From positions 1-64,000 of IMG/VR virus record IMGVR_UViG_3300009104_000008: 64,000 nucleotides of DNA; one strand, given 5' to 3'. The position numbers were made by a program, and so were the translations under genes. Shown piece after piece: positions 9,871 to 45,020 of this stretch (positions are counted from its first letter, which is position 1; the number at the start of each line of letters is the position of its first letter). Origin of the DNA: a virus. The notes under the pieces are model-generated. The model worked only from the letters and a program-made list of their open reading frames with translations. It was not told the DNA's origin and made no database searches.

Positions 9871-10604
9871 TCGAAAAAGTTATCTGTTATAACTGTTGAT
9901 TCTTCAAATTCTAATTGGAATGCTACTGATGGGTATTCTACCCCAGAAATGGTAGTAGAAAATGAACGAATAAAACCTTCTAATCCTATATGCTCAGCAG
10001 TTTTAACTTTAGAATCAAACACCGTTGATGGGCTACTGGTTGTATTTCCAGACATAGCCGTGAATGCATTATCATATGCCCTATTCTTCCAATTCCAAGG
10101 AATTAAAGGAATATCTTCAATATCTAAGTTTTTCATTTCTTCGGCAGTAATAGTTTGTCCGTCACTATTAACAGTTCTATAATCAAAATTATTATCTACC
10201 CTACTAGGATAAAATACTAGGAGTTTATTGAGATTTTGGTCATCTTGGAATGTGCTTCCATCAACATAAGAATGTATTAGTTGTGCTAATTCAAAGGCAG
10301 TCAATTTTACTCCATCACCCGAAGCATCAGAAGTTACACCCGAATCATTATTTTTCTGTATTACTTGGTCTAATAGAAGACCTTGAATAGATACAGTCTT
10401 TTGTGTTATTCCCATATCAAATGCTAAATTAGTAGATTCACCACGAATAGCACCAGAAAAAGGAATACCAACATTAGGCACTGTTTTATTTGCCGCAAAA
10501 GTTATTTCTGTTACATAAAGTGGTATTCTATTAATATGACCGCCTCCTTTATCATCCCTTCTTGCTAATTCCAAAAACACATTTATTGTTTCTGCTACGC
10601 TCAT
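9867..10604 (-). CDS. Putative distal tail / tail structural protein
   Basis: Immediately after tape measure; beta-rich; position-based call. Confidence 0.45.
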   Translation of the reverse strand: MSVAETINVFLELARRDDKGGGHINRIPLYVTEITFAANKTVPNVGIPFSGAIRGESTNLAFDMGITQKTVSIQGLLLDQVIQKNNDSGVTSDASGDGVKLTAFELAQLIHSYVDGSTFQDDQNLNKLLVFYPSRVDNNFDYRTVNSDGQTITAEEMKNLDIEDIPLIPWNWKNRAYDNAFTAMSGNTTSSPSTVFDSKVKTAEHIGLEGFIRSFSTTISGVEYPSVAFQLEFEESTVITDNFFD

Positions 10605-12604
10605 AATACACTCACCGCCGAACCTGTCCTATTCATCCTATTGTTTAGTTCTCTTGATAGTTTGTTTGCTATATCTTTGATTTCAGAATCAGAAGCCCCA
10701 ACTCTGCCTGTTACTGTGATATTATTTTGTATTGTAGTTCCACCAGATAACATCTTTTGACTATCAGCATTTGAATAAACTCTTGAACCTGCTGGTAATT
10801 TAACCAATTCTGGGCCTTTTTCCCCAACTAAAGATAATCCAGTTCTTGTAATACCACCGTCAGCATAAGGCCATATTTTTGCCATAACAGTGTCAGCAAT
10901 AATAGCAACTAATCCTAAAAATGCTCCAGCAATTAATAGAGGGAAACTATATATTCCGCCCACTATAATAGCAATTGCTGCGGCTATATACAATAAAGAA
11001 GTTACTCCCCTAGCAATACTTTCAGCCGCTGTATCACCCTGAGTAAATATTCCTTTTAGCGTTGCCCACATTCCTGCTAACAATCCAAATATTACCCCTA
11101 CAAAAACACCCCAAGCCACAGTTAATAGGCCAATTGCTATTTGTATTAATCCCCATATTACTGCAGTAAAATCTCCAGTCTTAAAACCATGAATAATATC
11201 ACTTAACCCTTCACTTATTAAGGCAAAACCAATTCCAATAATTTCACGAAATACTTCCCACACATTTAAAAATGCCTCAAAGCCTTCTTTTAATGGTGCT
11301 TCTATCATTTTAAATGCTCTATATAAGAAAAATAAACCTGTAATGATTAAAGTAAAGTATAACATGAATTTACCTACTACTTTAAATATCATTTTCATTC
11401 CCTTAAAAAAACCTGTAAACCCTTTCCAAAGGTTTGAAGGTGCATTTGCTAAGAAATCTCTAGTCATTTTTCCATATTGCATTAATCCTTTAGCAACATT
11501 CAATCTATTAAAAACACTGAAAAACTTATTCATTTTTTCTGTGGCATTAGGGAACATTTCTGTTCCACCCTCATTTTCAGGATATTCAGGTATTAATTTG
11601 CCCGTAACTAAACGGCTCTCTAAAAGTTTATTTCCCCATTTTCCATAGTCTTCCGTCTTATCCGTTATATCTTTAAGATGCTCCAATGCGGCATCAGTGA
11701 TATTTTCTGGCATTGCGCCAGCCTTTAATAGAATGTCTTTAAATTTACTAGGCCTATCTGGCTTTTCTGAATCATGCTTTGATATCTTTTTCTTAAGTTC
11801 TGTTATCTTTTTAGTTCTTTCCTCATCGGCCCAAAATTCTATACTCTCAATATCACCTTGACCTTCTAATATGGAAAGTTCATTTTTTAATTTGTCATTT
11901 TTCTTATTCCACTTATTAAGGTCTTCATTAACTACTAACATATCTTTTAAATATTTATGGCTAAGAGTAAAACCACCAGTTAATATAGTGGCTTGCATTA
12001 AAGAAGAGTTTTTAATTGCATCCTTTAACATGATAGCAGATTTATTTCCTGTTGTTCCACCAGCCACTAAAGTTCCCGCTTTCTCTGAAAGAAACTCCTG
12101 CATTTTAGCAATGGGGCTTCTTTCATCTGTTGCTGCGGCTATTATATCTTGTTGTATCTCTAGTTGTTTAGTTGTTTTTTCTGCAATACTGGCTAAAACC
12201 TTCTCTTTACTTCCTAATATTTCAACCATTGCATCAAAATGCTTAAAATTTTCTTTAATTGCATCAATATTATCTGCTTCTAATGCTGCTTGTAAATTTT
12301 GTAATTTTTGTCTATCATCAAGTGCTTTAGTTAGTGATTCAAACCTTTTTGCTTCTTGTAATGATTTCCTTTCAGTCCTATCTATTAACTGAACCATAGT
12401 CATTACAGTTGCTTTTGCTTTGTTTAATATTTTCCAAGCACCTGTTCCTGAAAGAAATCGACTAAGAATTTGATAATTTTTTCCTTCAACAAACTCATTC
12501 ATGCCCATTATTTCATTCTTCATTTTAAAGGCTTCTCTAGAACTGCGAGTAAATAGACGAGTAATATCGTCTAAATCTTCCTTCATTTCCTTTAAATCAG
12601 ACAT
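10601..12604 (-). CDS. Tail tape measure protein
   Basis: Helical N-terminus, long hydrophobic segment and typical YADGG...LVGEKGPELVKLPAGSRVYSN motif; follows the chaperone pair. Confidence 0.85.
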   Translation of the reverse strand: MSDLKEMKEDLDDITRLFTRSSREAFKMKNEIMGMNEFVEGKNYQILSRFLSGTGAWKILNKAKATVMTMVQLIDRTERKSLQEAKRFESLTKALDDRQKLQNLQAALEADNIDAIKENFKHFDAMVEILGSKEKVLASIAEKTTKQLEIQQDIIAAATDERSPIAKMQEFLSEKAGTLVAGGTTGNKSAIMLKDAIKNSSLMQATILTGGFTLSHKYLKDMLVVNEDLNKWNKKNDKLKNELSILEGQGDIESIEFWADEERTKKITELKKKISKHDSEKPDRPSKFKDILLKAGAMPENITDAALEHLKDITDKTEDYGKWGNKLLESRLVTGKLIPEYPENEGGTEMFPNATEKMNKFFSVFNRLNVAKGLMQYGKMTRDFLANAPSNLWKGFTGFFKGMKMIFKVVGKFMLYFTLIITGLFFLYRAFKMIEAPLKEGFEAFLNVWEVFREIIGIGFALISEGLSDIIHGFKTGDFTAVIWGLIQIAIGLLTVAWGVFVGVIFGLLAGMWATLKGIFTQGDTAAESIARGVTSLLYIAAAIAIIVGGIYSFPLLIAGAFLGLVAIIADTVMAKIWPYADGGITRTGLSLVGEKGPELVKLPAGSRVYSNADSQKMLSGGTTIQNNITVTGRVGASDSEIKDIANKLSRELNNRMNRTGSAVSVL

Positions 12605-13380: not shown

Positions 13381-14907
13381 TTAGACCATTATGGCCCACT
13401 TACCCTTGTAAGAAGCAGCCCCTAGAGTTCTTGCTGACAAAGTGACCTCAAATTCAATCGGGCCTTTGTCATCTGGGAAGGGAACATTTACACTTTGAAC
13501 TACATAATCCTGTAAATTAATGGATATCTGTTCTCCGCCGTCTTTAGTGAACTCTAATAAGATTTGCTTATTAGCACCGCTACTTTCTGATGATTCTCCA
13601 TCTTGTCTTAATTCATCCCATAGTTTAGTATCGGTAGCCAATACTGTTAATGATAATTCGTAAGTCCTTTGTGCTGGTATATGAGCAGACATAACTTGCC
13701 TGTTATTATTGAGAACAAATCTCTGCTGAGTAATATTGTTATTAATAGTTAAAGACCCAGTTTTAACCCTTCCTAGTGTTTGGCCAAATAATTTAATCGC
13801 ACCATCCGAATACATAAATGGATAGTTGTCTGCAACGGTTGCACTATAGTTTTGTAAGTGTGTTCCTATGCCTACTGCTTGCGACCTTCTAGGGATATAA
13901 TCATTAGCACCCGCTGTTTCTACATCATATGCCCTACGAGTTACAAGGTCTAAAGAAGTCTTTAATTCTTGACCTTCTTCAAAGTTAAGAGTTAATGTAT
14001 TCACTTGACAACCTGTAAATATTCTAGCAAATCTAGTTTCATTAGGGTTGTTATTATCTACAGGAGTTGTAGCGGTAACACCAGATTTATCATACATTAC
14101 TTCTAAAGCAAATGATGGTAATGTATCTCCATTCAATTCGCCTATTGTATATGTGAGTAAATTATCTGAATCAGGAGCATATAAATATAAATTTTGGCCA
14201 GCAGTTGTATCATTTACCCCTGCACCATCAGTTGTTATGCTTTCTTGGAAAGGAAATTCATTACCTCCTAATACTCTAATTAATTTAGTATTTGTAGTAT
14301 TTAATAAAAATCCATTTGAGTCGGCTGCCCAGTCTGTTGTAGTTGCAGTTTCTTGTGCAATACTAGAAATATTCCCTAAAGCATAATATAACCAAGAACC
14401 GTTGTTTAATGAAATATCCATTGAACCGCCACTAACTGTTTCTGCACCCTTAAATTGGTGTGCAAAATTTCGTGTTCCAGAAACAGCCAAATTAAGTTGT
14501 TTCATTTCAACTTCAACATTTGGTGGGGTAAGTGTATTAACTAATCCTAACCAATTATCTGATAATAATTGCGGACTTGACCCGTTTTTAGGTGCTGGAA
14601 CAGGCGCACCAAAAGCATATATTATTACTTCCGCATCTGTATCTGCACCTGTTGCTATATTATCTGTAAATGTAAATGATGTTCTATCATTTGACTTTAC
14701 AGTTGTGTAAGTAGTAGTAGAACCACTTTCAACCTTTGCTCTACAACCTACATACAAATTATCTAATAATTGAATTAATGCTGTTTCATTTATTGTTACT
14801 TTATTCAAAGTATTCGCGTCTACTGTTCCGTCATTATAGAACATATCCATTTCCGGCACAAATGTTGCCGATGTTCCTGCTCCTACAAATATCTCATTAC
14901 TTACCAT
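13381..14907 (-). CDS. Major tail (tube) protein
   Basis: 508 aa; FTGCQVNTLTLNF and SLTINNNI...RTYELSLT tube-like motifs; position before the chaperones. Confidence 0.75.
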   Translation of the reverse strand: MVSNEIFVGAGTSATFVPEMDMFYNDGTVDANTLNKVTINETALIQLLDNLYVGCRAKVESGSTTTYTTVKSNDRTSFTFTDNIATGADTDAEVIIYAFGAPVPAPKNGSSPQLLSDNWLGLVNTLTPPNVEVEMKQLNLAVSGTRNFAHQFKGAETVSGGSMDISLNNGSWLYYALGNISSIAQETATTTDWAADSNGFLLNTTNTKLIRVLGGNEFPFQESITTDGAGVNDTTAGQNLYLYAPDSDNLLTYTIGELNGDTLPSFALEVMYDKSGVTATTPVDNNNPNETRFARIFTGCQVNTLTLNFEEGQELKTSLDLVTRRAYDVETAGANDYIPRRSQAVGIGTHLQNYSATVADNYPFMYSDGAIKLFGQTLGRVKTGSLTINNNITQQRFVLNNNRQVMSAHIPAQRTYELSLTVLATDTKLWDELRQDGESSESSGANKQILLEFTKDGGEQISINLQDYVVQSVNVPFPDDKGPIEFEVTLSARTLGAASYKGKWAIMV

Positions 14908-18187: not shown

Positions 18188-18874
18188 TCACGCCAGCCAT
18201 TTAGCCCATGCAATTCCTTTACTAATTGCCCCACCTAATCCTAATCCACTCTGGGGCGGTGTATATGTCATTTGGCCTGTAGCGGGGTCTACCCAATATG
18301 GATTGTTATATTGGTCATATCCACTTGGAGGAATAGGATATCCACTTCCATTATTCATAGCCATTTGTTGTTGCATCATTTGCTGATTCATTCCACCCAT
18401 AGCAGGTGCGCCTTGAATGTTTGCAGGGTTTACTCCTTGTGGTGCAGTTAATTGGCCTTGTGGTTGTTGCCCTGCTCCTACATTAAATCCTTGAGATGCT
18501 AAATATTGCTCTTTAGCCATTTTCCTTTGCATAACTACTTCTGAATTAATTGCAGTAGCCAATAGTGTTTGTAAATCTAATTGGATATTTTCAGCAGTTA
18601 TGCTTTCATATTCTCTTAATGCATCAGGATGCACTTCTAATTCACCAGTAGTATTTTGCACAAATTTTAGTTTAACTAACATTTTGCTTACTACTCTTTC
18701 TATTACATCTTCAAATAATTTTTCAAAGGATGTTAAGAATGCTTCACCATGATAATAAAAGAATTCTTCTACATGATTTTCTTGTAAAGTCAATAAATTA
18801 TTCATTGACTTAAATTGTTCTTGATTATTGGCTGTCATCTGTTTTGCTAATGCGTTGTTACTTGTTCCCCACAT
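18188..18874 (-). CDS. Hypothetical helical protein with Q/M/P/G-rich low-complexity region and amphipathic C-terminus
   Basis: NQQMMQQQMAM, PPSGYDQY, ends GAISKGIAWAKWLA. Confidence 0.7.
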   Translation of the reverse strand: MWGTSNNALAKQMTANNQEQFKSMNNLLTLQENHVEEFFYYHGEAFLTSFEKLFEDVIERVVSKMLVKLKFVQNTTGELEVHPDALREYESITAENIQLDLQTLLATAINSEVVMQRKMAKEQYLASQGFNVGAGQQPQGQLTAPQGVNPANIQGAPAMGGMNQQMMQQQMAMNNGSGYPIPPSGYDQYNNPYWVDPATGQMTYTPPQSGLGLGGAISKGIAWAKWLA

Positions 18875-18876
18875 AA

Positions 18877-19536
18877 TTATTCCTCCACTTCTATTATTTT
18901 AGTGCCATCTTGTAATAGAGTTTTAACTCTATCATTTAATGCATTTGATTCTATAATCAATCTAAATAGTTCTTCTTCTCTAGATTCTGATAATCCCGCA
19001 GGAGGCCTAATTGTCCAGCCTAAAGAGGATAAACTACTTATATCACCTTCTTTAAGAGAAGTTAATGGGCCTGTTGCTAATGGATTTAAACTTTTAGCAG
19101 ATGGAATATACGCACTAAAAGATAAGCCGTGTTCTTCTGCTAACATTTGTTGTTCTAACATTTCATATTGTCTATGAAGGTGGGCGTGTTTTTCACAATA
19201 AGTTCCTCTCATTGGATAGCCTTTTCTAACCTTATGTAATGGAATTGGTGGCCTCATTGGGTCGCCCCCATCCCATATCTTCTGTGAGCCACAAACCACA
19301 CATCTATCTTTTATATTAAATGCAAATTTATATGGAAATTTTAGAAATGTTTTCTTTTCTGGCATTAAAACCTTAATTATTTCTTTAAGTTGTTTTCTTG
19401 GTTTTAATGATTTAAATTCATATTTCATCACACTACCAGCGGCTCTGGCCATTTGTTTTGGTGGTAAAAAGGCACTTGGTTCTACATAAGCATTAGAAGC
19501 ACCAATTAAACTAGGGGGTTGAAAGTTCATACTCAT
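18877..19536 (-). CDS. Hypothetical protein with putative Zn-binding motif
   Basis: CVVC...YCEKH. Confidence 0.65.
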   Translation of the reverse strand: MSMNFQPPSLIGASNAYVEPSAFLPPKQMARAAGSVMKYEFKSLKPRKQLKEIIKVLMPEKKTFLKFPYKFAFNIKDRCVVCGSQKIWDGGDPMRPPIPLHKVRKGYPMRGTYCEKHAHLHRQYEMLEQQMLAEEHGLSFSAYIPSAKSLNPLATGPLTSLKEGDISSLSSLGWTIRPPAGLSESREEELFRLIIESNALNDRVKTLLQDGTKIIEVEE

Positions 19537-19601
19537 TCTTCATCACTCCAAATTTCCCATACTCCACCTGATGAGTTTTCAAATTCAAAATATTTCCACA
19601 T
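19533..19601 (-). CDS. 22-aa micro-ORF MWKYFEFENSSGGVWEIWSDEE
   Basis: Fills the gap after the GTPase; AGGTG RBS; ATGA overlap with the next gene. Confidence 0.45.
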   Translation of the reverse strand: MWKYFEFENSSGGVWEIWSDEE

Positions 19602-19609
19602 TTTAACAC

Positions 19610-20281
19610 CTAATAATCTTTAATCATGGTTAATATTCCTCTATATACCATTTCTGAATCTGATTTTGCACTTACTATATATTTGAAACACGGTATTCCT
19701 GCATCATTTAATTTAGACATTCCACTTTTAAAAGGCTCAAATATTGGGTGTTCTTTTATTTCTCCATTATGATTATATCTATCTTTCCATATATCATATT
19801 TATTTGCCCACACTCCTACTGCTAATGGATAATCATGTGTTTTCTTTTTATTCTTTTTATTATTTTTATCCCAATAAGGAGAAACTATTGTATCTACTAA
19901 AAATGTCCAGCATAATTGTTGCTCAATATCATAATGCTTATTCATGTGCCTATCATCAATCATAAAGATAACATATTTTACTTTTCTATCATGCATATCT
20001 TTGAGCCATTCAGTCCAATAAATTGTTTCTCCGCCAACATCTGCTGTTTTTATTGTTCTAGCATCTCCATCTAATTTAATTGATTTTCTAGTTGCTCTTT
20101 CCTTTCCAATTGTTCTATTTGTTATATCAGGAACTTCTCCTCTTGTTCTTAATTGATGGTGTAATGTTGTTTTTCCCACCTGTGTTGCGCCATATACTCC
20201 AAAAGGAATTGAATGAACTCTATTCCAAAGCCTCCCTAAACTTTCTGCTACTACAACAATAAAGCCAGCCATTAGTGACAT
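19610..20281 (-). CDS. Small GTPase, Arf/Ras superfamily-like
   Basis: G1 GATQVGKT, G2 RTIG, G3 DVGGE, G4 NKYD, G5 SAK; hydrophobic/amphipathic N-terminus. Confidence 0.85.
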   Translation of the reverse strand: MSLMAGFIVVVAESLGRLWNRVHSIPFGVYGATQVGKTTLHHQLRTRGEVPDITNRTIGKERATRKSIKLDGDARTIKTADVGGETIYWTEWLKDMHDRKVKYVIFMIDDRHMNKHYDIEQQLCWTFLVDTIVSPYWDKNNKKNKKKTHDYPLAVGVWANKYDIWKDRYNHNGEIKEHPIFEPFKSGMSKLNDAGIPCFKYIVSAKSDSEMVYRGILTMIKDY

Positions 20282-20299
20282 GATATACCTCCATTATAT

Positions 20300-20533
20300 T
20301 CACCACAAATGTGACCAGAAATTAACCAATCCTCCCCAAATAGAACCATATATGTTTACCCCGTAAAAAGGTAAAGCATGGCCTAAAAGGAAACTAGCAA
20401 TAGATGCTACAGTTCCCCAAATAAAGAACCTAGCGCGAAGAAACCATACATCAGCAGAATGAGCGCGTTGTAGGTCATATGCTAATGTTGATTCATCAAA
20501 TCCCATTAGTATTTCTGATACCATATACCTCAC
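20300..20533 (-). CDS. Small membrane protein
   Basis: Hydrophobic FFIWGTVASIASFLLGHAL plus aromatic amphipathic C-terminus. Confidence 0.65.
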   Translation of the reverse strand: MRYMVSEILMGFDESTLAYDLQRAHSADVWFLRARFFIWGTVASIASFLLGHALPFYGVNIYGSIWGGLVNFWSHLW

Positions 20534-20952
20534 TCATTCATTGTTAAAAATGTTGGGCTAATCGTATTCTCATTCTCATAATTAGCACCATAATTAGCGG
20601 GGGGAGGGGGAGTTGGAAGGCCAAAAGTAGGATTATACTGTTGCTCGTATTGGCGCATAGTATCTCTAACTCTCTTTCTATTTTCCTCTTCTCTTTGTTT
20701 CCTTGCCCAATATTGGTCTATTTTTCTTTGAAGCAATGCATCTTCAATTCTATCGAATAGAGCCAAATCAAATACTGCCTTCAAAATCATTATCCCACCT
20801 ATGGTTAGGATGCCGAATAATAAGGCATGGCTATATCCCGCATATGGAAACAAAAATCCATATTGAGTATAGAAGTATATATTTACTCCACTAACTGCGC
20901 CCACAAATAAAATCGTCATTACTAATCTTGTATCATCTTCTAAACTTGGCAT
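20530..20952 (-). CDS. Two-TM membrane protein with coiled coil and Pro-rich tail
   Basis: Two hydrophobic stretches, then KQREEENRKR and PTPPPP. Confidence 0.7.
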   Translation of the reverse strand: MPSLEDDTRLVMTILFVGAVSGVNIYFYTQYGFLFPYAGYSHALLFGILTIGGIMILKAVFDLALFDRIEDALLQRKIDQYWARKQREEENRKRVRDTMRQYEQQYNPTFGLPTPPPPANYGANYENENTISPTFLTMNE

Positions 20953-20960
20953 TTAATCAC

Positions 20961-21260
20961 CTATGCAAAATTAACAGACACAGAACCAGAACCCGTTGAA
21001 AATTCAACATATAGCCCTTGCGCTAAGATTGCCCCATGAAAGTCATACTCAATAGATTGAGCAGTTCCACCCGCATGAAGATTTAAACGGGCTACTTCTT
21101 TCTTGCTTGTTGTCGTGCTGTTTGCGCTATCCCATATTTTAACAGTAAATAACGCGTTCGTGGTTGATGTAGCATAAATGCTAATTAACTTGGTTCTATC
21201 TGTTGATACCACTTTTGAGGCAGATATTACCCCGCTTGTGCTACATGATGGACTTCCCAT
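20961..21260 (-). CDS. Small beta-rich putative virion protein
   Basis: 99 aa, beta-sandwich-like pattern; downstream of capsid genes. Confidence 0.55.
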   Translation of the reverse strand: MGSPSCSTSGVISASKVVSTDRTKLISIYATSTTNALFTVKIWDSANSTTTSKKEVARLNLHAGGTAQSIEYDFHGAILAQGLYVEFSTGSGSVSVNFA

Positions 21261-22166: not shown

Positions 22167-23543
22167 TCACGCACTCTTAATGTTGGTAATCTTACCCTGC
22201 CCTTTGAAGAAGGAACAGCAAGTTTCGCCCATTGTGCGATACATACCCTGATTCCCTAGTTTTCCGACACCAAATGGGTTTCCGTTGGTAATACCATCCT
22301 CAAAGTATTGAGTAGGCTTCATCACAGATAACCACAAATGGTCTGTATCTAAGAACAACATATCACTTAGAGTGTTTGTTGTGTTAGCACCAGTTGAACC
22401 CATATCCTTTGCAGGAATTAATGGGATATCAAAGTAAGTTGCTACCCTAAATCCAGCCTCAGTTCCCTTTACACCCTTTACACCATTATGGGTAGGAACA
22501 ATCTCTTTCCTGTCCATAAATCGCTCTTGGCTCTGTAGTAGGTCAGCAATATGCTGAATTGTATCATAGCCTGTTAAGATGCACTTCGGGTTTCCACCAT
22601 TCTGGCGGATTCTGCGAATCATGCTATTAATCATGCTTAAAGTTAGAACCCTAGCATCAGAAGCAGCATATCCATCACCGAAATCAACCTCAGCATCTAA
22701 GTAAGATGCAGTTCCGGTTGCGGCGTTAGATGAGATACTTACTGTTCTTGATGTTCCAAAGATATTCACTACATCTGCAACAACTGCAGAGTTATCTCCG
22801 TTGTTAGCACCTGTGTTTAATTCGTTAGCATTATACATTGCGGCAATTTCTCCTGCTGAAGATACAATCTTTAATAGAGAAGTGTAGTTTCTCTCAATGT
22901 CTGTTGCAGTTCCATCATCATAGTTCTCAAATGGCATTACTAACATTCTGCTCTGTGTTTCTGCGTGATGCTTACCCATATCCTCACGGATAATAGCGCG
23001 TATATCGCCTACTCCGTCATCAATAGCCGCTAATTCCATTCCAAGTTCTGAGAACTCAAACAGATGAGCAACTGTCTTAGGGCTAACATAAAGTTTAGCA
23101 TACTCAGGTGATAATGGCCTAAATCCATTTGCACCATCTAATGTTGCGTTTTCCTCAACTCCACCAATTTGGTCTGAGCGAGGGGTTGATAAATCTGCAG
23201 TATTTGCAGCAACCGCAGTTGTTCCTAGTCCAAAGGAAGAACCACTACCACCAGTAGGTCGGCTCTTTAGAACCCTCCAACCGCTTGAAGTGTATGGCCT
23301 CTTTGCTAAGATAGAAAGAGGATTAACCTCTTGATTTAGCATAGACCATACTTTCTGTCCGTAAAGAACATTGTATAGGTCGCCTAATCCACTAGCGGCA
23401 CTAAACGGGTTTGATGCGGCATCATGGGGCGTTCCGAATCCACCAACAACACCAGAACTCTTCAATAGAGCATTACCAGCAGGGCCAGTTAATCCGTATG
23501 TTGCGGCTTCTAAGTCTTTTAATGTGTTTGTATATCCTGTCAT
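22167..23543 (-). CDS. Major capsid protein (HK97 fold)
   Basis: Follows the protease; YGQKVWSMLNQEVNPLSILAKRP, PKTVAHLFEFSE, DIPLIP, MLFLDT motifs. Confidence 0.9.
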   Translation of the reverse strand: MTGYTNTLKDLEAATYGLTGPAGNALLKSSGVVGGFGTPHDAASNPFSAASGLGDLYNVLYGQKVWSMLNQEVNPLSILAKRPYTSSGWRVLKSRPTGGSGSSFGLGTTAVAANTADLSTPRSDQIGGVEENATLDGANGFRPLSPEYAKLYVSPKTVAHLFEFSELGMELAAIDDGVGDIRAIIREDMGKHHAETQSRMLVMPFENYDDGTATDIERNYTSLLKIVSSAGEIAAMYNANELNTGANNGDNSAVVADVVNIFGTSRTVSISSNAATGTASYLDAEVDFGDGYAASDARVLTLSMINSMIRRIRQNGGNPKCILTGYDTIQHIADLLQSQERFMDRKEIVPTHNGVKGVKGTEAGFRVATYFDIPLIPAKDMGSTGANTTNTLSDMLFLDTDHLWLSVMKPTQYFEDGITNGNPFGVGKLGNQGMYRTMGETCCSFFKGQGKITNIKSA

Positions 23544-24779: not shown

Positions 24780-27326
24780 CTAAGCGGGGTTGCCTTCGGG
24801 CAGGGGTAAATTTTTATACCTATCTTCAGTAATATCCCATAAACCATCGTCTTCTTTTGATTCTAACATAGTTTGTTTTGTTCCTGTCCAAACAACCCAA
24901 TGCTTTTTATCATTCAAAGGAACGACCCTAAGATGTAATCTAGTGTCAAATTTATCCCCTTGTATCTTAAATTCATGATAACCGTGTCTTTGAACGCCAA
25001 GAGTAATAATTCCTTTATCTAATATTTTACCTTCTCTAGCATTACCTAAAACAACTTTGGCAGGAAATTTATTAGATTTACCAAATAAGTTATAAACATC
25101 AGAAGTATCTTCAATATCTATTAACCACGCTAGTCTTTTTTCATTTACAATATAAATTAATAAAAGATTATCATCTTCAGTAGTTGTAATTGTGAATTTA
25201 CCTTTTTTTGGGTTAATTTTCTCATCTTTTGCTATTGCAGATGGGTTTGCTGAAAATTTATCATTAGCGCGGTCATAAACAATATCTTCTTGTTTAATTA
25301 GCCACTTTTTCAATTTCTTAGAATCTCCATCAAACGCTGGCCCTTCAAAATGTTCAATATAATTTTCTAACACAAATTCTTGTATTGTATCAAATTCTAC
25401 TTGGTCATCCCATTCAATTAATTTATTTTTAATGCCCATTCTTAATTCAGAACGCACACTTTTAAGCGCAATTTGTAAATCTTCTTTCCAAACATCTATA
25501 TCATATAGTGCTTGTTTCTCCATTAAACTATCACCATTAAAACCGTAAATAGTAAATCCATCTAAATTAGATTTCATAAGAATTTCTGCTTCCCCATGTA
25601 TTTCATCAGTAATATACATTTTCTTTACGCCTTTTAATTTATATTGAAATGGCTTATCTAAATCTTCCCAAATTGATTTCTTGGCTTTGTCTGATAACAA
25701 CTCTAAAGTCTCTAATTTATCTGATTGAGTTACTTCAGGGATTTCAATAACCTTTGCTGAAAATAAACTAAAACCTTCTTTAGTTTTCTTTACCTCATCC
25801 ACCTTAACTCTAACAATACTACCCACCTTAACAGATTGCTTAGTATTTAGTGCTTTACCTACAGAAAGATAGGCTTTATCTTTTAATTCTACAGTCTTAT
25901 ATGAACGGGCTTGTTCAGCAGTTAATGGGCCTATACCTAAAGTATATGAATGAAGCCCACTTTTTGTTTCTTTACTATCTAAAATAATAACATCTAAATC
26001 AACAAATTTCTTCCATTTAACCCACTTAGGGTTTTTCTTAGAACCTAACTGGTAAGTAGATTCAATGTCCTTAATTACAACTCCCTCAGAAGCAGGTAAA
26101 TTCATTATTTCCTCCGCATAATCACCTACTTCTTTTATAGAATCTGCAATTCTAGTATCTTTCTTTGAAGGATATGCCAATTCTTCAGATGAATGTTGGG
26201 CATATTGATATAGCAGAATATTAATTCTTTCTCTCAAAGGTTCATCTAATAAATCCTTATCATCATGTTCCATAATATCAAATACATGAAGCCTTAATTG
26301 ACCACCCTCAATGGGCTTCTTAAAAATGTGTGAAATTGTGGCGGCTCTATGAAGTGCTTTACCATTTTTAAATAGCATTAACTCCCCATCTAAAATACAA
26401 TTGCCTATATGTTTCTTATCTAACCTTTCTATTTGTTCTGAACATTTATCAGAAATATCTTTTTGATTATAAGAAAGGATTTTAATTGTTTTACCGTTTT
26501 TATGAATTTGCACTCTCATGCCGTCATATTTTTCTTGAATTACATATTCACCAGAAAAACCTTTCAGTTGCTCTAGGTCTTTTAATTCAAATATCCTATA
26601 CATTGGTTTATTAGGAACTAGGAAATTAATCTCTGACTTCTCAGCCTCGCTTTTCTCAGATTTTTTAATATCTATCTCAATTAACGCATTCCATTCCTTT
26701 TCATTATATTCCTCAAGAAACACCTTTTTTAGTATAGATAAAACACTCTTAAATTTGGTTTTGATGCGCTTAGTATCTTTATCTTCCCCATAGTGCTCTG
26801 AAATGTATAAGGGTATATCTTTCATCTCTAAATCTAATCCATTTGCATTTTGAGTTATTTCATCGGGCTTAAGGCCGTGTTTTTCCCATGCCGATGCGGG
26901 GATTGGTAGGGAATGTTTGCGAAGGGCATAGTGAATAAAGGCGGCGAAGACACTAGAATTACTGAGTAATACATCAATTACTTCTTCGCCTAACTGATTA
27001 GCGAATGGGTCGCCAACTTCTTTAGAATCAAACCTCATTTCTTTGACTGCATCATATAGCCTCTTGGCTTGAGTTGATTCAGGGTTTTCAGCCCCATCAT
27101 CAAATAAGTTATCTTCATCAATGTATTTCTTTAATACTCTAGTAAAAGAATCTAAACCATCAAACGACTCACGAATAGACTTAACTGTTGCTCTCCATTT
27201 TTTACCGTATTTATTTGGGTCTTCTTTTGCAGATAAGTAAGAATAGCGAGTCCTCTCAAAGAAATCTAAAACACGCTTGGATAGCGCATTTTTTTCTTTT
27301 TCAAAGGAAACGCCAGATATAGCCAT
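24780..27326 (-). CDS. lig: ATP-dependent DNA ligase with N- and C-terminal extensions
   Basis: EKYDGMR (motif I), LDGEL, VFDIM, EGVVIK, WVKWKK, then an OB-like domain. Confidence 0.9.
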   Translation of the reverse strand: MAISGVSFEKEKNALSKRVLDFFERTRYSYLSAKEDPNKYGKKWRATVKSIRESFDGLDSFTRVLKKYIDEDNLFDDGAENPESTQAKRLYDAVKEMRFDSKEVGDPFANQLGEEVIDVLLSNSSVFAAFIHYALRKHSLPIPASAWEKHGLKPDEITQNANGLDLEMKDIPLYISEHYGEDKDTKRIKTKFKSVLSILKKVFLEEYNEKEWNALIEIDIKKSEKSEAEKSEINFLVPNKPMYRIFELKDLEQLKGFSGEYVIQEKYDGMRVQIHKNGKTIKILSYNQKDISDKCSEQIERLDKKHIGNCILDGELMLFKNGKALHRAATISHIFKKPIEGGQLRLHVFDIMEHDDKDLLDEPLRERINILLYQYAQHSSEELAYPSKKDTRIADSIKEVGDYAEEIMNLPASEGVVIKDIESTYQLGSKKNPKWVKWKKFVDLDVIILDSKETKSGLHSYTLGIGPLTAEQARSYKTVELKDKAYLSVGKALNTKQSVKVGSIVRVKVDEVKKTKEGFSLFSAKVIEIPEVTQSDKLETLELLSDKAKKSIWEDLDKPFQYKLKGVKKMYITDEIHGEAEILMKSNLDGFTIYGFNGDSLMEKQALYDIDVWKEDLQIALKSVRSELRMGIKNKLIEWDDQVEFDTIQEFVLENYIEHFEGPAFDGDSKKLKKWLIKQEDIVYDRANDKFSANPSAIAKDEKINPKKGKFTITTTEDDNLLLIYIVNEKRLAWLIDIEDTSDVYNLFGKSNKFPAKVVLGNAREGKILDKGIITLGVQRHGYHEFKIQGDKFDTRLHLRVVPLNDKKHWVVWTGTKQTMLESKEDDGLWDITEDRYKNLPLPEGNPA

Positions 27327-32678: not shown

Positions 32679-34049
32679 TCATATTTCTTCATCCCTATTT
32701 TCCTTAGTAATTACGCCCGACTGTTCTAATTCATCCATAATAGCCATTTTATTATTTTCTTCTAACTTATGAATATTATCAACATCAATATCTAATTCAC
32801 TAAAATCAAATCTAGTATTATCACTATGATTATAGTATTTCATTAATTTATACAATTCTCGTAATCTATTCTTAGACCACTTTTCCTTTTTAAAATGTTT
32901 TTTAATCCTAACTAATTCTAATAGTGCCTGTGCATTTTTAGATTTGAGTTTAAAATGTGGTGCACATTTAGTCAATAAATCATGTATATCTCCTTGTGAA
33001 TAAAAATTTAATCTATTAACTGGTCTAGTATCTTGTGGAGATTTTTGGTCTAAATGCAACCTACCCATACCTAATGATTTATGCATCTCTAACATAAATG
33101 CTTTCCCTCTATCTCCAGTAGCAACTAATCCTACTCTAGGATTAAAATTCTTATCTATAGTAATAAACCCATCTGAATCAATAAATGCTGCGGTATATGC
33201 CCAAATGTTTTTCTTAATAGAATCATCTAATTTATAATATGCTCCATTTACATTTGTTATGTGTTGTGTCTTTGCTAATTTTGCAATCATATTAGGAGTG
33301 CTTTTAGATTGTAAATTAACAGGTAATGCTTCATGCATTTGTCTTGCAGAAATTCCGGGATTATTACAAACAGATTTTAATATTGACTCTTTAATCTTAG
33401 ACTTCATACCAACAGTAGTGCTTTGCTTTCTAATAATTGATTTAAAGTTCTTTTTGCTTTGTGACATTTCTTTATTTAATTTAGCATATTCACCATTAAA
33501 GGGTAAGTCTTTCTGTTCTAATTTAGATTCCCAATATTTACATAGATTATCTATAATTTCTCTTCTTGTAGGCTCATCATAAATATTACCTAGTTTAATT
33601 ATATCTTTTTCACTACAAACCATTTCTTTAACCAGAGGCTTATATTTATGAAGCCAATAAATACTATCAATGCTTTTATCTAAATGGTCAGTATAAGCAT
33701 CTATTAAATTATCAATAGACTTTGTTATATTTATTTTTGTGTCGCCCTTTAATGTTCTTCTAAACATACGCATATCTTTAATTATATCGGGTATATTCTT
33801 ATCCTCAATTATATATTCCTTTAATGGATTCTTTAATATGTTGTTTGCATTAGTGTAAGATAATTTAAACTCTTTAGCATAGTCCTTAACAATAGTAGCA
33901 TGGTCAATAAGAGGTTGCTCTAATAACCATTCTTTACGCTGTAAATCACTTTCAATATCTTTTTGTTCCTCAGTCAATCTCTCGACTTCTTCAACCTTAT
34001 CTGCTAATTCTCTTAATTTTTGAGACTTTTCTCCGACCATCTTATTCAC
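32679..34049 (-). CDS. Multidomain protein with C-terminal LAGLIDADG endonuclease domain
   Basis: WAYTAAFIDSDGFITI motif and LLTKCAPHFKLK; N-terminal coiled coil and wHTH-like NNPGISARQM. Confidence 0.8.
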   Translation of the reverse strand: MNKMVGEKSQKLRELADKVEEVERLTEEQKDIESDLQRKEWLLEQPLIDHATIVKDYAKEFKLSYTNANNILKNPLKEYIIEDKNIPDIIKDMRMFRRTLKGDTKINITKSIDNLIDAYTDHLDKSIDSIYWLHKYKPLVKEMVCSEKDIIKLGNIYDEPTRREIIDNLCKYWESKLEQKDLPFNGEYAKLNKEMSQSKKNFKSIIRKQSTTVGMKSKIKESILKSVCNNPGISARQMHEALPVNLQSKSTPNMIAKLAKTQHITNVNGAYYKLDDSIKKNIWAYTAAFIDSDGFITIDKNFNPRVGLVATGDRGKAFMLEMHKSLGMGRLHLDQKSPQDTRPVNRLNFYSQGDIHDLLTKCAPHFKLKSKNAQALLELVRIKKHFKKEKWSKNRLRELYKLMKYYNHSDNTRFDFSELDIDVDNIHKLEENNKMAIMDELEQSGVITKENRDEEI

Positions 34050-34057
34050 CTCATGCT

Positions 34058-35497
34058 TTAAAAATTTAAACCCAATAAACCCGCATTTGGGGCAGTTTGT
34101 TGGCTAGTTGGGCCATCGAATATCCCTATGTCATCGAGCAGTATGAAGGTATCTGTAGCCACTTGAGAAGCGGCGTTAGCAAGTGCTAATCCCATCACCA
34201 AATCGTCATGCGCACCTACTCCTTCAAACCTTCCAGATTCAGTAATAGAGAACATTGAGAGTTCTTCTATTAATGCGCTTGTCATTTTTTTGCTATTATT
34301 ATCCCCATAAGGGAAGATTAACTTACCATTTTCAATGTTCATTTGTAAGTTGAGAATTATCTCCTGTTTCTTTTTTCTAGTTGTATTAAAATCCTTAATA
34401 TTCAAATCAGATATATTTCGTAATTCTTGAGTAAATGCCTTAGCAAAGGTATTAGTTTCATATAATATTGCTTCGGGTTGATAGAGTTTCCCAATTAATC
34501 TAATTTTTTCTATATTTTCTCTAAACTCTACATTCTTAGACCTATCAACATGAACAATCGCCTTATTCATTTCTTCATCTACTTCTAGCACCATAATTAC
34601 ATTATAGTCACCATCAGTAGATATAGCAGGGTCTACACCAACATAATATTTATATCCCTTATCCCTTCTATTGCCTAACTTAAGTATATATTCTTTATTC
34701 TTACAAGCATTAACATAGTCAGGGTCGAATAAAGCAGTTCCGGTTGATACAGGAATACACAAGTATTCTCTTGTGAATTTCAACGAGCCTATTTCTGACT
34801 TTCTTTGCATTAAAGCATCATAAGCCCAACGCTCAGGCCATAGTGGTTCATTAAGGGAATTTAGACAAGGGTATTTCCTTACAGTATAGGCTTCATTTTC
34901 TTCTAATTGTGAGAAAATATCAGTATATGTAAAGGGAGTGCCTATCATTCTTAATGAAGCAGTATGATGAAGAGTAGGAATCATATCTCCAAAGAACCAA
35001 TCTGTTACTCTTTGAATACCCGACATACTAAACTCCTTCAAGGGGTCGTCAATAATAATCTCTTGAGGGTGAAGACCACGAATCTGAGAACCGATTGAAC
35101 GCTCTAATATAGCATTACCATTAGTTAATTGAATATTTCCGATAGCCCATCCTCTTGAAGGTTTATATTTTTTAAGGGCTGGTAAGTTAAAGTATCTATC
35201 AATCTCTCTCATATGAACAAGTGTCTGCTTTTGGTTAGAGGATATGTATAGCATTTGAAATGGGGGCTCTTCAAACACTAATTTCCAAACTACCCATGAA
35301 TGCATAAATACTGATTTTCCGTGGTCACGACTACATACAATTACAGTTCTATCAGTTGTTTCCATTAATTCTTTCCACTCTTGCATATAGTCAGGATATT
35401 GCATTCCTAATACATTTTGAAAGAAATATGGGAATGAATTTTTAGATAACTCCATGTCCATTGCAGACATAAAATCTAATTGCGCTACTTCAGCCAT
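34058..35497 (-). CDS. terL: Terminase large subunit
   Basis: Walker A SRDHGKS, Walker B IIIDD, IGTP, nuclease YVGVDPA and HDDLVM. Confidence 0.92.
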   Translation of the reverse strand: MAEVAQLDFMSAMDMELSKNSFPYFFQNVLGMQYPDYMQEWKELMETTDRTVIVCSRDHGKSVFMHSWVVWKLVFEEPPFQMLYISSNQKQTLVHMREIDRYFNLPALKKYKPSRGWAIGNIQLTNGNAILERSIGSQIRGLHPQEIIIDDPLKEFSMSGIQRVTDWFFGDMIPTLHHTASLRMIGTPFTYTDIFSQLEENEAYTVRKYPCLNSLNEPLWPERWAYDALMQRKSEIGSLKFTREYLCIPVSTGTALFDPDYVNACKNKEYILKLGNRRDKGYKYYVGVDPAISTDGDYNVIMVLEVDEEMNKAIVHVDRSKNVEFRENIEKIRLIGKLYQPEAILYETNTFAKAFTQELRNISDLNIKDFNTTRKKKQEIILNLQMNIENGKLIFPYGDNNSKKMTSALIEELSMFSITESGRFEGVGAHDDLVMGLALANAASQVATDTFILLDDIGIFDGPTSQQTAPNAGLLGLNF

Positions 35498-44126: not shown

Positions 44127-44627
44127 TAATTATCCAAATTATCGGTTTGGGTAACATTAATAGAAATGTCCGACTTATCATAAAATACCCCATATAATTT
44201 TTACTATTGAATTTAAAGAAAAAGTCTCAAAAAATGGGCTGTAATTTATTTGGCACTTGCGAAATTTTTATTTTTAGTTTAATTGCATTACCAGAATAAA
44301 AATAGTCTTTCAGTTTTATATACATAATAACATCATAATAGAATCATATTAGGCGAAAAAAACAAGTTTTTTTCTTTGGCTTATTTATATTTAATTAGAA
44401 TATTTATGTAGTCTATATGAGCCAATAATACATATCTACAGCCGTCTAATCTTGGGATATATTAGAGGAACATAAAGGTAATCTTCAAGAGGATTAAATT
44501 TTATGCCCACAACACATAAAAAGAAATTAATTTAATTGTTTTAATAAATCAAATAAAAAAAATTTGTTCCCCTGCTACGCACCCATTCCCCAGTTACTCC
44601 CATATGATAGGATAATTGTATTATCAC

Positions 44628-44666
44628 ACCATATGGTTGGTGCTTTGCTACCACCCCATTTTAATT
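44628..44666 (+). promoter_or_regulatory. Repeated promoter motif, copy 1
   Basis: ACCATATGGT-N5-CTTTG-N5-ACCCC-A-TTTTAATT. Confidence 0.6.
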
Positions 44667-44680
44667 AAATGAAAATTCGT

Positions 44681-44753
44681 GAGCAGGGGCGATAAGCATA
44701 CTAAAAGCCTACTAAAGGCCTATTTCGCGCTTGTTTCACTTATCGTCTTACTC
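44681..44753 (+). ncRNA. Candidate small structured RNA
   Basis: GGGGCGAUAAG pairs with CUUAUCGUCUU (G:U pairs); inner GCCU/AGGC hairpin; begins just downstream of promoter copy 1. Confidence 0.4.
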
Positions 44754-44795
44754 AGTCATTTCCGTATGGTGGCAGCCATGCTTCATATTGGAATC

Positions 44796-45020
44796 TTATT
44801 CTTCTTCTTGTATAGGATGCCCATTTTCATCAACTATTTCTATGGTATCTATCTCAACAACATCACCATACTCACTATCTAACACATCTATCCATTCAAT
44901 ATCCATTTCATGTAAATCGTCAATAGTTAATGTAAGAGGGTCTTTATCAGTCTTTAAAACTACAAACCGCTTATTCCATATTATTTGCTTTTCCCAGAAA
45001 GTTAAATGATATTCTTTCAT
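44796..45020 (-). CDS. Small acidic hypothetical protein
   Basis: End of a minus-strand small-gene operon. Confidence 0.6.
   Translation of the reverse strand: MKEYHLTFWEKQIIWNKRFVVLKTDKDPLTLTIDDLHEMDIEWIDVLDSEYGDVVEIDTIEIVDENGHPIQEEE

Follow-up and report, generated by a model that had tools for sequence, protein, structure and literature searches.

A conserved viral cassette combining a divergent Arf-like small GTPase with two predicted membrane proteins and two orphan proteins

The magrovirus IMGVR_UViG_3300009104_000008, a tailed virus of abundant ocean archaea, carries what is, by its sequence, a strongly conserved and very divergent Arf-type GTPase. It forms a conserved block with two small proteins predicted to lie in the membrane and with two orphan proteins. 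The window analyzed here comprises positions 1 to 64,000 of this record, and the cassette occupies positions 18,188 to 20,952. We consider it very probable that a real GTPase lies within a functional conserved cassette, and probable, with less confidence, that this GTPase acts as a GTP switch at the membrane. Our preferred reading, to which we give slightly less than an even chance, is that the cassette encodes a viral GTP switch, expressed late and active at the cytoplasmic membrane of the host, whose likely output is timed virion exit. Taken by itself, egress is the leading guess for this output, and a doubtful one. No description of the cassette was found in the searchable literature.

The five cassette ORFs and a 22-aa ORF all lie on the minus strand, where the sequence-only reading had placed them (Table 1). 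That reading located them inside the virion arm, and rightly so: the cassette is flanked by the genes for the MCP (22167-23543) and the tail tube (13381-14907). The gaps between genes, counting the cassette and the neighboring structural genes, were 8, -4, 18, 73, 2, and 21 nt on a single strand, so the cassette is co-oriented and tightly packed with the late structural genes. These small gaps on a strand shared with structural genes suggest that the cassette is expressed late. A place within the structural arm would also suit virion-borne ejection proteins, with the TM proteins and the GTPase packaged and opening the membrane of the new host at entry; some podovirus ejection proteins do carry membrane-active segments. 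We find this extremely unlikely, since a nucleotide switch inside a capsid would be without a nucleotide supply and the 667-aa tape-measure-like protein of this virus, with its three hydrophobic segments, could serve entry instead.

Table 1. Features of the cassette and of its GTPase in the window, in order along the minus strand
Feature	Coordinates	Strand	Remarks
TM140, first cassette gene, 140-aa membrane protein	20530..20952	-	ORF listing
TM77, second cassette gene, 77-aa small membrane protein	20300..20533	-	ORF listing
Arf-like small GTPase, third cassette gene, 223 aa	19610..20281	-	
Predicted N-terminal hydrophobic/amphipathic helix, codons 2-22, putative membrane anchor	20216..20278	-	
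G1/P-loop GATQVGKT, residues 31-38	20168..20191	-	G31 kept in 124/125, K37 in 120/125
G3 DVGG (residues 81-84) plus E85 at the Arf catalytic Gln position	20027..20041	-	
Lys-rich insert between G3 and G4, residues 134-153	19823..19882	-	6 K in 20 residues
G4 NKYD, residues 160-163, guanine specificity motif	19793..19804	-	
22-aa ORF in the gap between the GTPase and Cys/His genes, doubtful	19533..19601	-	
Cys/His protein, fourth cassette gene, 219 aa, of no known family	18877..19536	-	
Gln-rich protein, fifth cassette gene, 228 aa	18188..18874	-	

The G1-G5 motifs announced by the sequence-only reading, with an Arf-style TIG and a DVGG followed by E in place of Q, were all recovered, and conservation of motif residues was counted over 125 distinct family members. 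In addition to the motifs of Table 1, the GTPase shows TIG at residues 57 to 59 and SAK at residues 204 to 206. Motif residues were retained overall in 118 to 125 of the 125 members, far above chance: T57, D81, K161, and D163 in 119 each, G84 in 122, and N160 in every one. The motifs G1 (GxxxxGK[ST]), G3 (DxxG), and G4 (NKxD) occur in the order characteristic of the Ras superfamily (TRAFAC), and the predicted model (pLDDT of 81) has the G-domain fold of a small GTPase of this superfamily. Guanine nucleotide binding is putative, as suggested by the motifs and the model. At position 85, which corresponds to the Arf catalytic glutamine, the family has Q (57 members), E (54), D (7), Y (4), or H (3); because Q and E are almost equally frequent, the glutamate of this virus reads as a lineage variant. 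Of the residues that correspond to the Arf-type switch motifs (T-[IV]-G in switch I and DxGGQ followed by a conserved Trp), T57 and W92 were kept in 119/125 members each and G59 in 58/125. The Lys-rich insert was disordered in the model, with a pLDDT below 50 at residues 144 to 148, and a basic stretch was present at this position in all 17 aligned members.

The likeness to Arf was seen in profiles and structure comparisons. No Pfam threshold was passed by the GTPase of this virus, the scores being 19.0 bits for MMR_HSR1 (threshold, 21.9), 17.4 for SRPRB (25), 17.6 for Roc (27), and 15.4 for Ras (21.6), and Pfam Arf (PF00025) was absent among its five sub-threshold families (E values up to 1). 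Among 17 family members, Pfam Arf matched 5 at an E value of ≤0.01 (best, 3.1e-6), and SRPRB gave sub-threshold matches in 6. The best PDB profile match was GerdArfR1 of Asgard archaea (8oun_A; E = 5.6e-9), in which PTIG aligns with the viral RT[IV]G and DLGGQ...W with DxGG[EQ]...W. The single predicted model resembles GTP-type Arf structures, and in structure comparison Arf scored better than Rag, Rab, and G-alpha by only about 2 Z units. A search of 1.84 billion representatives returned only 57 proteins at an E value of ≤0.001, of which 7 aligned ones carry the family motifs and the other 50 are short pieces or low-identity matches.

As in the Arf family, a predicted amphipathic helix precedes the G domain. 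It spans residues 2 to 22 in the model, and the best 18-residue window (residues 8 to 25) has a hydrophobic moment of 0.53 and a mean hydrophobicity of 0.62, a moment reached in 15 of 2,000 shuffles. The amphipathic N terminus seen in the sequence-only reading is thus borne out by both model and moment, and a comparable extension occurs in all four virus branches discussed below. Membrane binding by this helix is putative. We link the GTPase to the membrane because the amphipathic helix recurs in the four branches and because two genes for TM proteins lie directly upstream.

The partner proteins matched no Pfam family, and for the two downstream proteins this extended to E values of up to 1 and to sets of 21 and 17 relatives. 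Nor did any protein of the cassette match a holin, PHROG, or PADLOC family. TM140 has two N-terminal hydrophobic segments (peaks at residues 10 to 28 and 39 to 67), a charged helical stretch at residues 67 to 110 (11 K/R and 9 D/E), and a tail rich in Pro, Asn, and Tyr, with 17.5% Pro in the final 40 aa; this corresponds to the two-TM, Pro-rich protein of the sequence-only reading. The small TM protein of that reading is TM77, which overlaps the stop of the upstream TM140 gene by 4 nt and has a single hydrophobic segment above the threshold and a C terminus rich in Trp and other aromatic residues. Outside the cassette, three hydrophobic segments were seen in the tape-measure-like protein, and further small TM ORFs are present elsewhere in the genome, where a separate lysis function may lie.

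Three other descriptions had to be amended. The proposed zinc protein does have the Cys/His residues (C79, C82, C114, and H117), but the full CxxC...CxxH site is not family-wide: it was found in 43/43 proteins of its own lineage and in 12/64 of a second lineage, and it is lost in a third, where C114 and H117 occur in 0/3 proteins. This protein had no Pfam, PHROG, PADLOC, or PDB match. The protein described as rich in Gln, Met, and Pro with an amphipathic tail has that composition in its C-terminal half (Q, 14%; G, 16%; P, 11%; M, 7%), but its tail is hydrophobic and not clearly amphipathic (moment of 0.25 and hydrophobicity of 0.64 over the last 14 residues). The protein comprises a conserved core of about 100 aa, the region rich in Gln, Gly, Pro, and Met, and a hydrophobic tail with many Gly residues, and no Pfam or PDB match was found. 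The 22-aa micro-ORF is present in this virus, yet conservation does not mark it as part of the cassette: the gap between the GTPase and the next gene ranged from -4 to 106 nt across 63 loci, and any ATG ORF of at least 15 aa was found there in only 16 of them.

The sequence-only reading had named the breakup of the cluster among related viruses as a finding that would count against it; the cassette instead recurs in four diverged virus branches, at differing genome positions. Within this lineage, gene order was identical in the 20 loci listed of 80, and the partners were found in 68 to 80 of the 80 loci, including TM140 in 79 (by tblastn) and TM77 in all. Between branches, profile homology reached 99.9% for the GTPase and 96.5 to 100% for the Cys/His protein (hhalign, 97.7%, E = 2e-12, and 96.5%, E = 1e-9), and the Gln-rich protein gave hhalign values of 93.8% (E = 1.7e-7) and 94.8% (E = 5e-8). 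For the two TM proteins, homology holds within the set of the three other branches (97.9% and 93.7%). Those of this lineage are not demonstrably homologous to them: TM140 matched the same-position genes at hhalign E values of 0.001 to 0.019, compared with 0.07 to 0.7 for cross-component controls, which is suggestive of homology, and the comparison of TM77 with the other branches was not significant (best E, 0.0019). The counterparts of TM77 nevertheless have the same size, position, and architecture.

The GTPase is single-copy and was found in 19 of 20 records chosen by the likeness of their terminase, including all 16 that were at least 90% complete, and in 10 of 13 records of the second lineage, where the three misses have the expected place off the contig. 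All five cassette genes are under purifying selection (dN/dS of 0.03 to 0.20 overall and of 0.05 to 0.20 against the two nearest loci). The median identity over 47 loci was 72.6% for the GTPase and 72.5% for the MCP, and the divergence of the GTPase correlated with that of the terminase in 12 records (Mantel r = 0.90, reached by 0 of 2,000 permutations). Here the cassette follows the MCP gene at a distance of 1.9 kb, whereas in two records of another branch it precedes the terminase gene by 8 to 12 kb and the MCP gene by 23 kb; it is on the terminase and MCP strand in all three records compared. In these viruses, the cassette belongs to the core genome in a single copy, always oriented with the structural genes and inherited as a block.

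These observations bear on two further readings. The cassette may help morphogenesis, building or marking a membrane site for the assembly of heads or for head-tail joining, with the GTPase as a checkpoint and with no role in exit. In phage T4, proheads start to assemble at the inner membrane, aided by a helper associated with it, and in this lineage the cassette lies between the MCP gene, with its small head-side genes, and the tail tube gene, a position that fits such a helper equally well as it fits our reading; the codivergence of the GTPase with the terminase and its MCP-like conservation point the same way. The position differs between lineages, however, being upstream of the terminase gene and 23 kb from the MCP gene in the other one, so the cassette is not tied to any single structural neighbor. 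In addition, the 22 features annotated near the MCP and tail genes of a related halovirus, HVTV-1, include no GTPase, indicating that this morphogenetic plan works without one, and no cassette protein matched a structural PHROG. We judge this reading unlikely. Alternatively, the cassette may serve host takeover or exclusion by blocking superinfection, host division, or vesicle traffic or by countering a membrane-linked defense. Phage modules for exclusion and host control commonly combine small TM proteins with a switch protein, and the cassette does shift as a unit between genome positions, like accessory modules. Its core, single-copy nature and MCP-like conservation are not those of a patchy accessory, though, its genes lie among the late structural genes on their strand, and PADLOC assigned 0 families to nine cassette proteins from two lineages, making this quite unlikely.

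Returning to a late GTP switch at the membrane, we can outline how it might work. In the GTP form, the N-terminal helix would be freed and the GTPase would dock on the membrane in the manner of Arf and Sar1, possibly beside the cytoplasmic charged tail of the two-TM protein. The soluble orphan Cys/His and Gln-rich proteins would be regulator and effector. The presence of either Q or E at the catalytic position suggests that hydrolysis may depend on a partner. At the end of assembly, a timed membrane change would release virions, with the TM proteins forming a lesion or portal and the GTPase acting as its gate or clock. A bolder version, which we think rather unlikely, is that ocean head-tailed archaeal viruses have in this cassette their long-sought exit machine, a GTP-gated and GTP-timed TM lesion or portal whose switch reads the GTP state of the cell; the Cys/His protein would regulate the switch in a GAP-like way, and the Gln-rich protein would be an effector that associates with itself. 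Because the host has never been cultured, lytic exit of the virus is itself assumed.

Few ocean viruses are as abundant as magroviruses, which infect the uncultured archaea of Marine Group II. According to PMC10791045, the exit route of any head-tailed archaeal virus is unknown and the players in egress are "completely uncharacterized." The cassette provides this question with a concrete gene set that can be tested in heterologous hosts. If the exit machine were real, Arf-style membrane switching would operate outside Asgard archaea and eukaryotes, in very abundant viruses of the sea; if the function were assembly or host control, the cassette would still be a rare instance of a tailed virus with a small GTPase in its core genome.

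The cassette shares features with several known systems. The lysis genes of lambda are located just upstream of the terminase block, as is the cassette in the second lineage. Like phage holin/antiholin cassettes, it has small membrane proteins on the late strand with a charged cytoplasmic C-terminal domain; TM140 fits the description of holins in PMC10791045, which asks for one or more TM domains and a charged, hydrophilic domain at the C terminus and is a loose criterion. Phage lysis cassettes differ in having no counterpart for the GTPase and the two soluble orphan proteins, and no endolysin gene is adjacent here. The absence of a recognizable holin or endolysin, remarked on in the sequence-only reading, held for the 40 genome proteins scanned with Pfam, among which no lysozyme, amidase, muralytic, or holin family was found; neither Pfam nor PHROG revealed a holin or cell wall hydrolase in the 10 genes around the cassette or in 30 further proteins. 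With Sar1/COPII and SR-beta, the putative common element is a GTP-dependent N-terminal helix or anchor at the membrane. A TM partner activates Sar1, and its GAP carries a Zn finger. The likeness is in layout only; all SRPRB matches were sub-threshold, and no coat-like or longin-like partner was detectable in the cassette.

In the euryarchaeon Haloferax volcanii, ArvA is a small GTPase whose N terminus carries an amphipathic helix. It drives vesicle formation, a demonstrated membrane-deforming role, and its operon includes a Zn-ribbon protein for which a GAP function has been proposed (PMC10927574). By analogy, the viral GTPase, which has such a helix and likewise precedes a Cys/His protein with Zn-type cysteines, could drive the budding of vesicles carrying virions, viral DNA, or decoys. 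The analogy did not extend to the partners: the sole genome match to ArvC/OapC (PF09845) lies outside the cassette, at 33939-34097 (15.6 bits; cutoff, 23), and the protein directly downstream of the GTPase, where ArvB/OapB (DUF2073) would be expected, matched no Pfam family at E values of up to 1. Moreover, the ArvA-ArvB-ArvC (OapABC) operon as described has no TM proteins, whereas the viral cassette has two; ArvA is named an Era/EngA type (PMC10927574), whereas the closest structures of the viral GTPase belong to the Arf family; and budding, according to PMC10791045, is not known for head-tailed virions. Vesicle release is thus very unlikely.

The closest likeness is to Arf and ArfR proteins (GerdArfR1, 8OUN/8OUM; HodArfR1, 8OUK), which appear to share with the viral GTPase, at least in part, a T-[IV]-G switch I and a DxGG[QE] motif followed by a conserved Trp. 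As described for Asgard ArfR (bioRxiv 10.1101/2024.02.28.582541), both have an amphipathic N-terminal helix without a myristoylation signal. The viral GTPase differs from the Arf family in its low identity (17 to 23%), a beta2-beta3 hairpin longer by 7 residues, the Lys-rich insert ahead of G4, another insert between G4 and G5, and, in about half of the viral proteins, E instead of Q at the catalytic position. ArfR has been described as almost exclusive to Asgard archaea (bioRxiv 10.1101/2024.02.28.582541), whereas the viral GTPase comes from a lineage linked to Marine Group II; with it, the range of Arf-type switches would come to include viruses of a euryarchaeal lineage, a point of interest for the origin and spread of these switches.

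The cassette holds a real, selected Arf-like GTPase that is fixed in a block with membrane proteins and is core to two virus lineages. Its genes follow one another closely (table below), with spacings of 8, -4, 18, 73, 2 and 21 nt when those to the flanking genes are included, and four of the five starts are preceded by purine-rich GGAGG-like boxes. The first product, TM140, has two hydrophobic segments and then a charged stretch (11 K/R and 9 D/E in 44 residues), with proline making up 17.5% of its last 40 residues, and the second, TM77, has a single segment over the hydrophobicity threshold.

Genes of the cassette and the short ORF between them, with positions in the window
Product	Position	Strand	Remark
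140-aa protein (TM140)	20530-20952	-	first cassette gene in transcription order
77-aa protein (TM77)	20300-20533	-	4-nt overlap with the preceding stop
223-aa protein (GTPase)	19610-20281	-	
22-aa ORF	19533-19601	-	
219-aa protein (Cys/His)	18877-19536	-	
228-aa protein (Gln-rich)	18188-18874	-	

A relative of the GTPase was encoded in 337 of 338 candidate stretches of IMG/VR, and 80 loci, at 62 to 95% identity, were retained. Searched by tblastn with the window proteins, all 80 loci yielded TM77; TM140 turned up in 79 of them, the Cys/His protein in 77 and the Gln-rich protein in 68, counts that include loci ending early. The order prohead protease, major capsid protein (MCP), g117, (g148), g99, TM140, TM77, GTPase, Cys/His, Gln-rich was identical in all 20 of the 80 loci that were printed. 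A second branch, with GTPases of about 30% identity, was confirmed in 81 of 82 stretches (80 retained). The GTPase aside, tblastn found nothing that it has in common with the window, and its layout is the same: genes for a TM/coiled-coil and a small TM protein precede the GTPase gene, and those for a Cys-containing and a Gln-rich protein come after it. The gene of an 80-aa protein with two TM segments usually comes next. The IMG/VR scans for the remoter GTPases P0130, P0146 and P0154 gave no locus; two more branches sharing the layout were found later, one P0130-like (in metagenome contigs) and one P0136-like (in IMG/VR), and no genomic context was found for P0146, P0154 and P0174. The P0130-like branch has an additional acidic gene of about 250 aa ahead of the GTPase; its product (248 to 260 aa, with a long poly-Asp/Glu tail) is encoded between the small TM gene and the GTPase (L168 7229-7999, L173 6435-7181, L177 7217-7999). 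A protein of about 510 to 550 aa, encoded a few genes from the cassette in other branches (L085 3073-4644 (-), L164 5250-6785, L167 4820-6481), resembles by eye a group II chaperonin (thermosome).

Profile-profile comparisons of the window's lineage with the other branches related the GTPases (99.9%, E = 3e-35), the Cys/His proteins (97.7%, E = 2e-12; 96.5%, E = 1e-9) and the Gln-rich proteins (93.8%, E = 1.7e-7; 94.8%, E = 5e-8). The scores were weak for the larger (E = 0.001 to 0.019) and the small TM protein (E = 0.0019 to 0.1), with cross-component controls at E = 0.07 to 0.7, so TM140 and TM77 are either highly diverged homologues or like-built replacements. The TM proteins of the three other branches are homologous to each other (larger, 97.9% and 97.4%; small, 93.7%).

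For an estimate of prevalence that does not depend on the cassette, records were picked by the likeness of their terminases. In the first lineage, which is that of the window, the GTPase was present in 19 of 20 such records, including 16 of the 16 that were at least 90% complete; the sole miss is a 75%-complete record with its terminase at the contig end expected to bear the cassette. In the second lineage it was present in 10 of 13, and in the three misses the contig extends less than about 5.2 kb beyond the terminase in the upstream direction. The GTPase was single-copy in all four long records. In the L229 record (G013, 184,733 bases) two copies lie at about 67.2 and 159.0 kb; at roughly twice the usual genome length, it is likely a concatemer, or else assembly has fused two related genomes. 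In the L341 record (G029), the GTPase match at 44485-45192 carries one in-frame TGA, which could reflect a broken copy, a sequencing error or recoding. Median identity to the window, taken over the 47 loci in which no gene is missing, was 72.6% for the GTPase, 72.5% for the MCP and 60.6% to 67.8% for the four partners, and dN/dS against the two nearest loci was 0.05 to 0.20 for all five cassette genes. Divergence of the GTPase followed that of the terminase in the first lineage (12 records; Mantel r = 0.90, reached by 0 of 2,000 permutations), a pattern consistent with vertical inheritance alongside the virus backbone; the value for the second lineage (r = 0.18) is unreliable, coming from only 5 records, one with an apparently wrong ORF call (GTPase identity 0.10). 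A scan of cellular contigs gave one real match, at 63% identity on a contig of 12.2 kb, probably viral and mis-binned, in a MAG labelled Maricaulis, and three weak ones in Bacteroidetes MAGs (29% over 90 residues); its patterns were specific to close relatives and it therefore says nothing on absence from cells.

The GTPase carries the motifs GATQVGKT (31-38), TIG (57-59), DVGG-E (81-85), NKYD (160-163) and SAK (204-206), with motif residues conserved in 118 to 125 of the 125 distinct sequences from the four branches. The glutamate noted by the sequence-only reading at the position of the Arf catalytic glutamine is real; since the 125 sequences are split between Q (57) and E (54), with D in 7, Y in 4 and H in 3, it is a lineage variant. 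Such variability at a catalytic position hints, from the alignment, that GTP hydrolysis may depend on a partner. A word-indexed search gave 352 proteins at E ≤ 0.001 out of 696 candidates, and an exhaustive phmmer search of 1.84 billion representatives only 57, many of them short pieces. The seven of these 57 that were aligned, all full-length, share the G motifs of the family, and none of the seven was recognisable as a member of another GTPase family. No match was found by tblastn in 50,697 phage records, a set that may omit records near the window, and 3 of the 120 relatives listed carry the JGI label "GTPase SAR1 family protein".

Assignment to a known family was less sharp. The window's GTPase is under every Pfam threshold; the 17 members scanned singly matched MMR_HSR1 (10), Roc (8), SRPRB (6), Arf (5, best E = 3.1e-6) and Ras (5), and in NCBIfam only the generic small_GTP domain, below threshold, in 13 of the 17. 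Because it falls below the Pfam Arf threshold, the sole formal family test available, we call the viral protein Arf-like and not an Arf. A phmmer search against PDB sequences gave nothing meaningful (best E = 0.62), and the family profile placed the Asgard GerdArfR1 (8oun_A, E = 5.6e-9) ahead of Rab33B (1.1e-7) and KRas (5.7e-7). With the AlphaFold2 model (pLDDT 81.2, pTM 0.81), Foldseek returned Arf/Arl, Rab, Ras and G-alpha chains mixed in one list; in the structure comparison, the first non-Arf family was an Asgard RagA-like GTPase (17.1), followed by Rab5 (16.4); the lead of the Arf family in these model-based comparisons is consistent but small. The model has a predicted N-terminal helix (2-22) and a disordered Lys-rich loop (144-148). 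With 11 uncharged residues ahead of E13, the N-terminal extension, comparable across all four branches, is not long enough to span a membrane; in its best 18-residue window the hydrophobicity is 0.62 and the hydrophobic moment 0.53, a moment reached by 15 of 2,000 shuffles.

None of the four partners has a Pfam, PHROG, PADLOC or PDB-sequence relative, and PDB profile searches gave no match for the Gln-rich protein and a single chance-level one (E = 0.26) for the Cys/His protein. The nearest Atlas clusters of the Cys/His protein are unnamed viral ones (0.89 to 0.90). Those resembling the Gln-rich protein were all below 0.8, with portal/connector names on a minority of cluster members, and were treated as noise. 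The sequence-only reading had a zinc protein, an amphipathic tail on the Gln-rich protein and a 22-aa micro-ORF. The window's Cys/His protein does carry C79, C82, C114 and H117, and the putative zinc site is not family-wide: position 82 is Cys in 43 of 43 members of the window's lineage and Asp in 51 of 64 of the second, C114 and H117 are missing in 3 of 3 P0130-like proteins, and only C79, G83 and G106 are universal. The Gln-rich protein has a conserved core (about 100 residues), scattered F-G pairs in low-complexity stretches rich in Q, M, G and P and, in most branches, an N-terminal M-G-[LF]-F-G-x-S/N-N; in the window's copy, the C-terminal half contains 14% Q, 16% G, 11% P and 7% M. The end of the protein is Gly-rich and hydrophobic, and not clearly amphipathic as had been proposed. 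The micro-ORF exists and is not a conserved cassette member, since the gap between GTPase and Cys/His genes holds an ORF of at least 15 aa in 16 of 63 loci. Micro-ORFs of 20 to 33 aa occur where this gap is about 70 nt or longer (window 19537-19609 and its equivalent in L001-L027); all 16 printed peptides have an N-x-S/T triplet and several end in C-x-C-x-x-C, and the micro-ORF may be a small lineage-specific gene.

The virus record of the window has 87,384 bases (estimated 92% complete) and a GC content of about 32%. Upstream of the cassette, on the same strand, are genes for a prohead protease, an HK97-type MCP (SU10_MCP, 26.3 bits; phrog_24667, E = 2.9e-19), an ATP-dependent ligase, the portal and the large terminase, and downstream a tail tube protein (Phage_tube_2, E = 4.8e-16). 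Elsewhere are a second ligase, an RFC-like AAA protein, family B polymerase pieces and a ribonucleotide reductase. The ATP-dependent DNA ligases are an 848-aa protein in the head operon (window 24780-27326 (-), DNA_ligase_A_M, E = 4e-31) and a conventional three-domain protein of 520 aa in the genome beyond the window (G000 65456-67018 (+)). Two ORFs match the polymerase: a 564-aa one with the exonuclease and the start of the polymerase domain (G000 73130-74824 (+)) and a 306-aa one covering profile positions 220-327 (75734-76654 (+)), which could be a split gene, an intein or other intervening element, or a frameshift. Relatives of the MCP among the 50,697 phage records were only haloarchaeal HVTV-1-like and methanogen viruses (22 to 28% identity), and marine metagenomes, Tara among them, supplied those of the GTPase, the contigs being at most about 104 kb long. 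Gene content, relatives and GC together fit a magrovirus; magroviruses have been linked to Marine Group II archaea (PMC5434244).

In the window, the distance downstream from the MCP gene is 1.2 kb to the start of the cassette and 1.9 kb to the GTPase gene. Two records of the second branch, one of 118 kb (100% complete) and one of 96 kb, have the GTPase upstream of both the terminase (by 8 to 12 kb) and the MCP (by about 23 kb), and in all three records it is on the strand of both. Past the tail tube gene, a 667-aa protein (window 10601-12604 (-)) with three strong hydrophobic segments (residues 409-558) and no Pfam match is probably, by its sequence, tape-measure-like with membrane-active parts. 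Seawater RNA libraries from two studies covered small shares of the window. Contigs of relatives from them (85% likeness) cover chiefly the MCP and the protease, with, in run X2, also short pieces over 20442-21013 and thin cover in bins 18363-18976 and 19284-19590; such contigs give no reading of transcription, its level or its timing, and DNA can be present in these libraries.

The viral GTPase would cycle on and off the cytoplasmic membrane via its N-terminal helix, as described for Arf, Sar1 and ArfR (bioRxiv 10.1101/2024.02.28.582541), and might act together with the cytoplasmic tail of TM140, the Cys/His and Gln-rich proteins regulating or reading out its state. No recognisable lysis enzyme was found in the 40 proteins scanned of this genome, and the egress of head-tailed archaeal viruses is described as an open question (PMC10791045). 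Given these two points, the late-strand position and the holin-like TM140, our leading, still doubtful, guess for the output is a timed membrane breach for egress. Less probable are, in falling order, a role in morphogenesis at the membrane, host control or exclusion, ArvA-like vesiculation and virion-borne entry proteins, the last very improbable. Small ORFs with predicted TM segments also occur outside the cassette, on the early/replication side (window 53492-54211 and 62451-62807; G000 64104-64646 and 82112-82267), and could bear on the lysis question.

Among the papers listed by full-text searches, none describes a GTPase in these viruses, and those that combine Poseidoniales, GTPase and virus all concerned Asgard archaea. 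The word GTPase is missing from the main text of the first magrovirus paper (PMC5434244), the 2023 diversity study (PMC10160649), the 2025 Poseidoniales virus paper (PMC11706807) and the 2021 archaeal tailed virus paper (PMC8651126), though an annotation of single genes in the supplementary tables of the magrovirus papers could list one; holins were proposed solely for another order in the Poseidoniales virus paper (PMC11706807). OapC (PF09845) matched with only 15.6 bits (cut-off 23), outside the cassette at window 33939-34097 (-), where the match straddles the junction of a 456-aa gene and the terminase gene. Within Euryarchaeota, the ArvABC operon of Haloferax, reported to comprise an amphipathic-helix GTPase and a Zn-ribbon protein and shown to drive vesicles (PMC10927574), is the closest functional precedent. 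The ArvABC partners are unrelated to those of the cassette. The cassette GTPase would work like an Arf/Sar-type switch.
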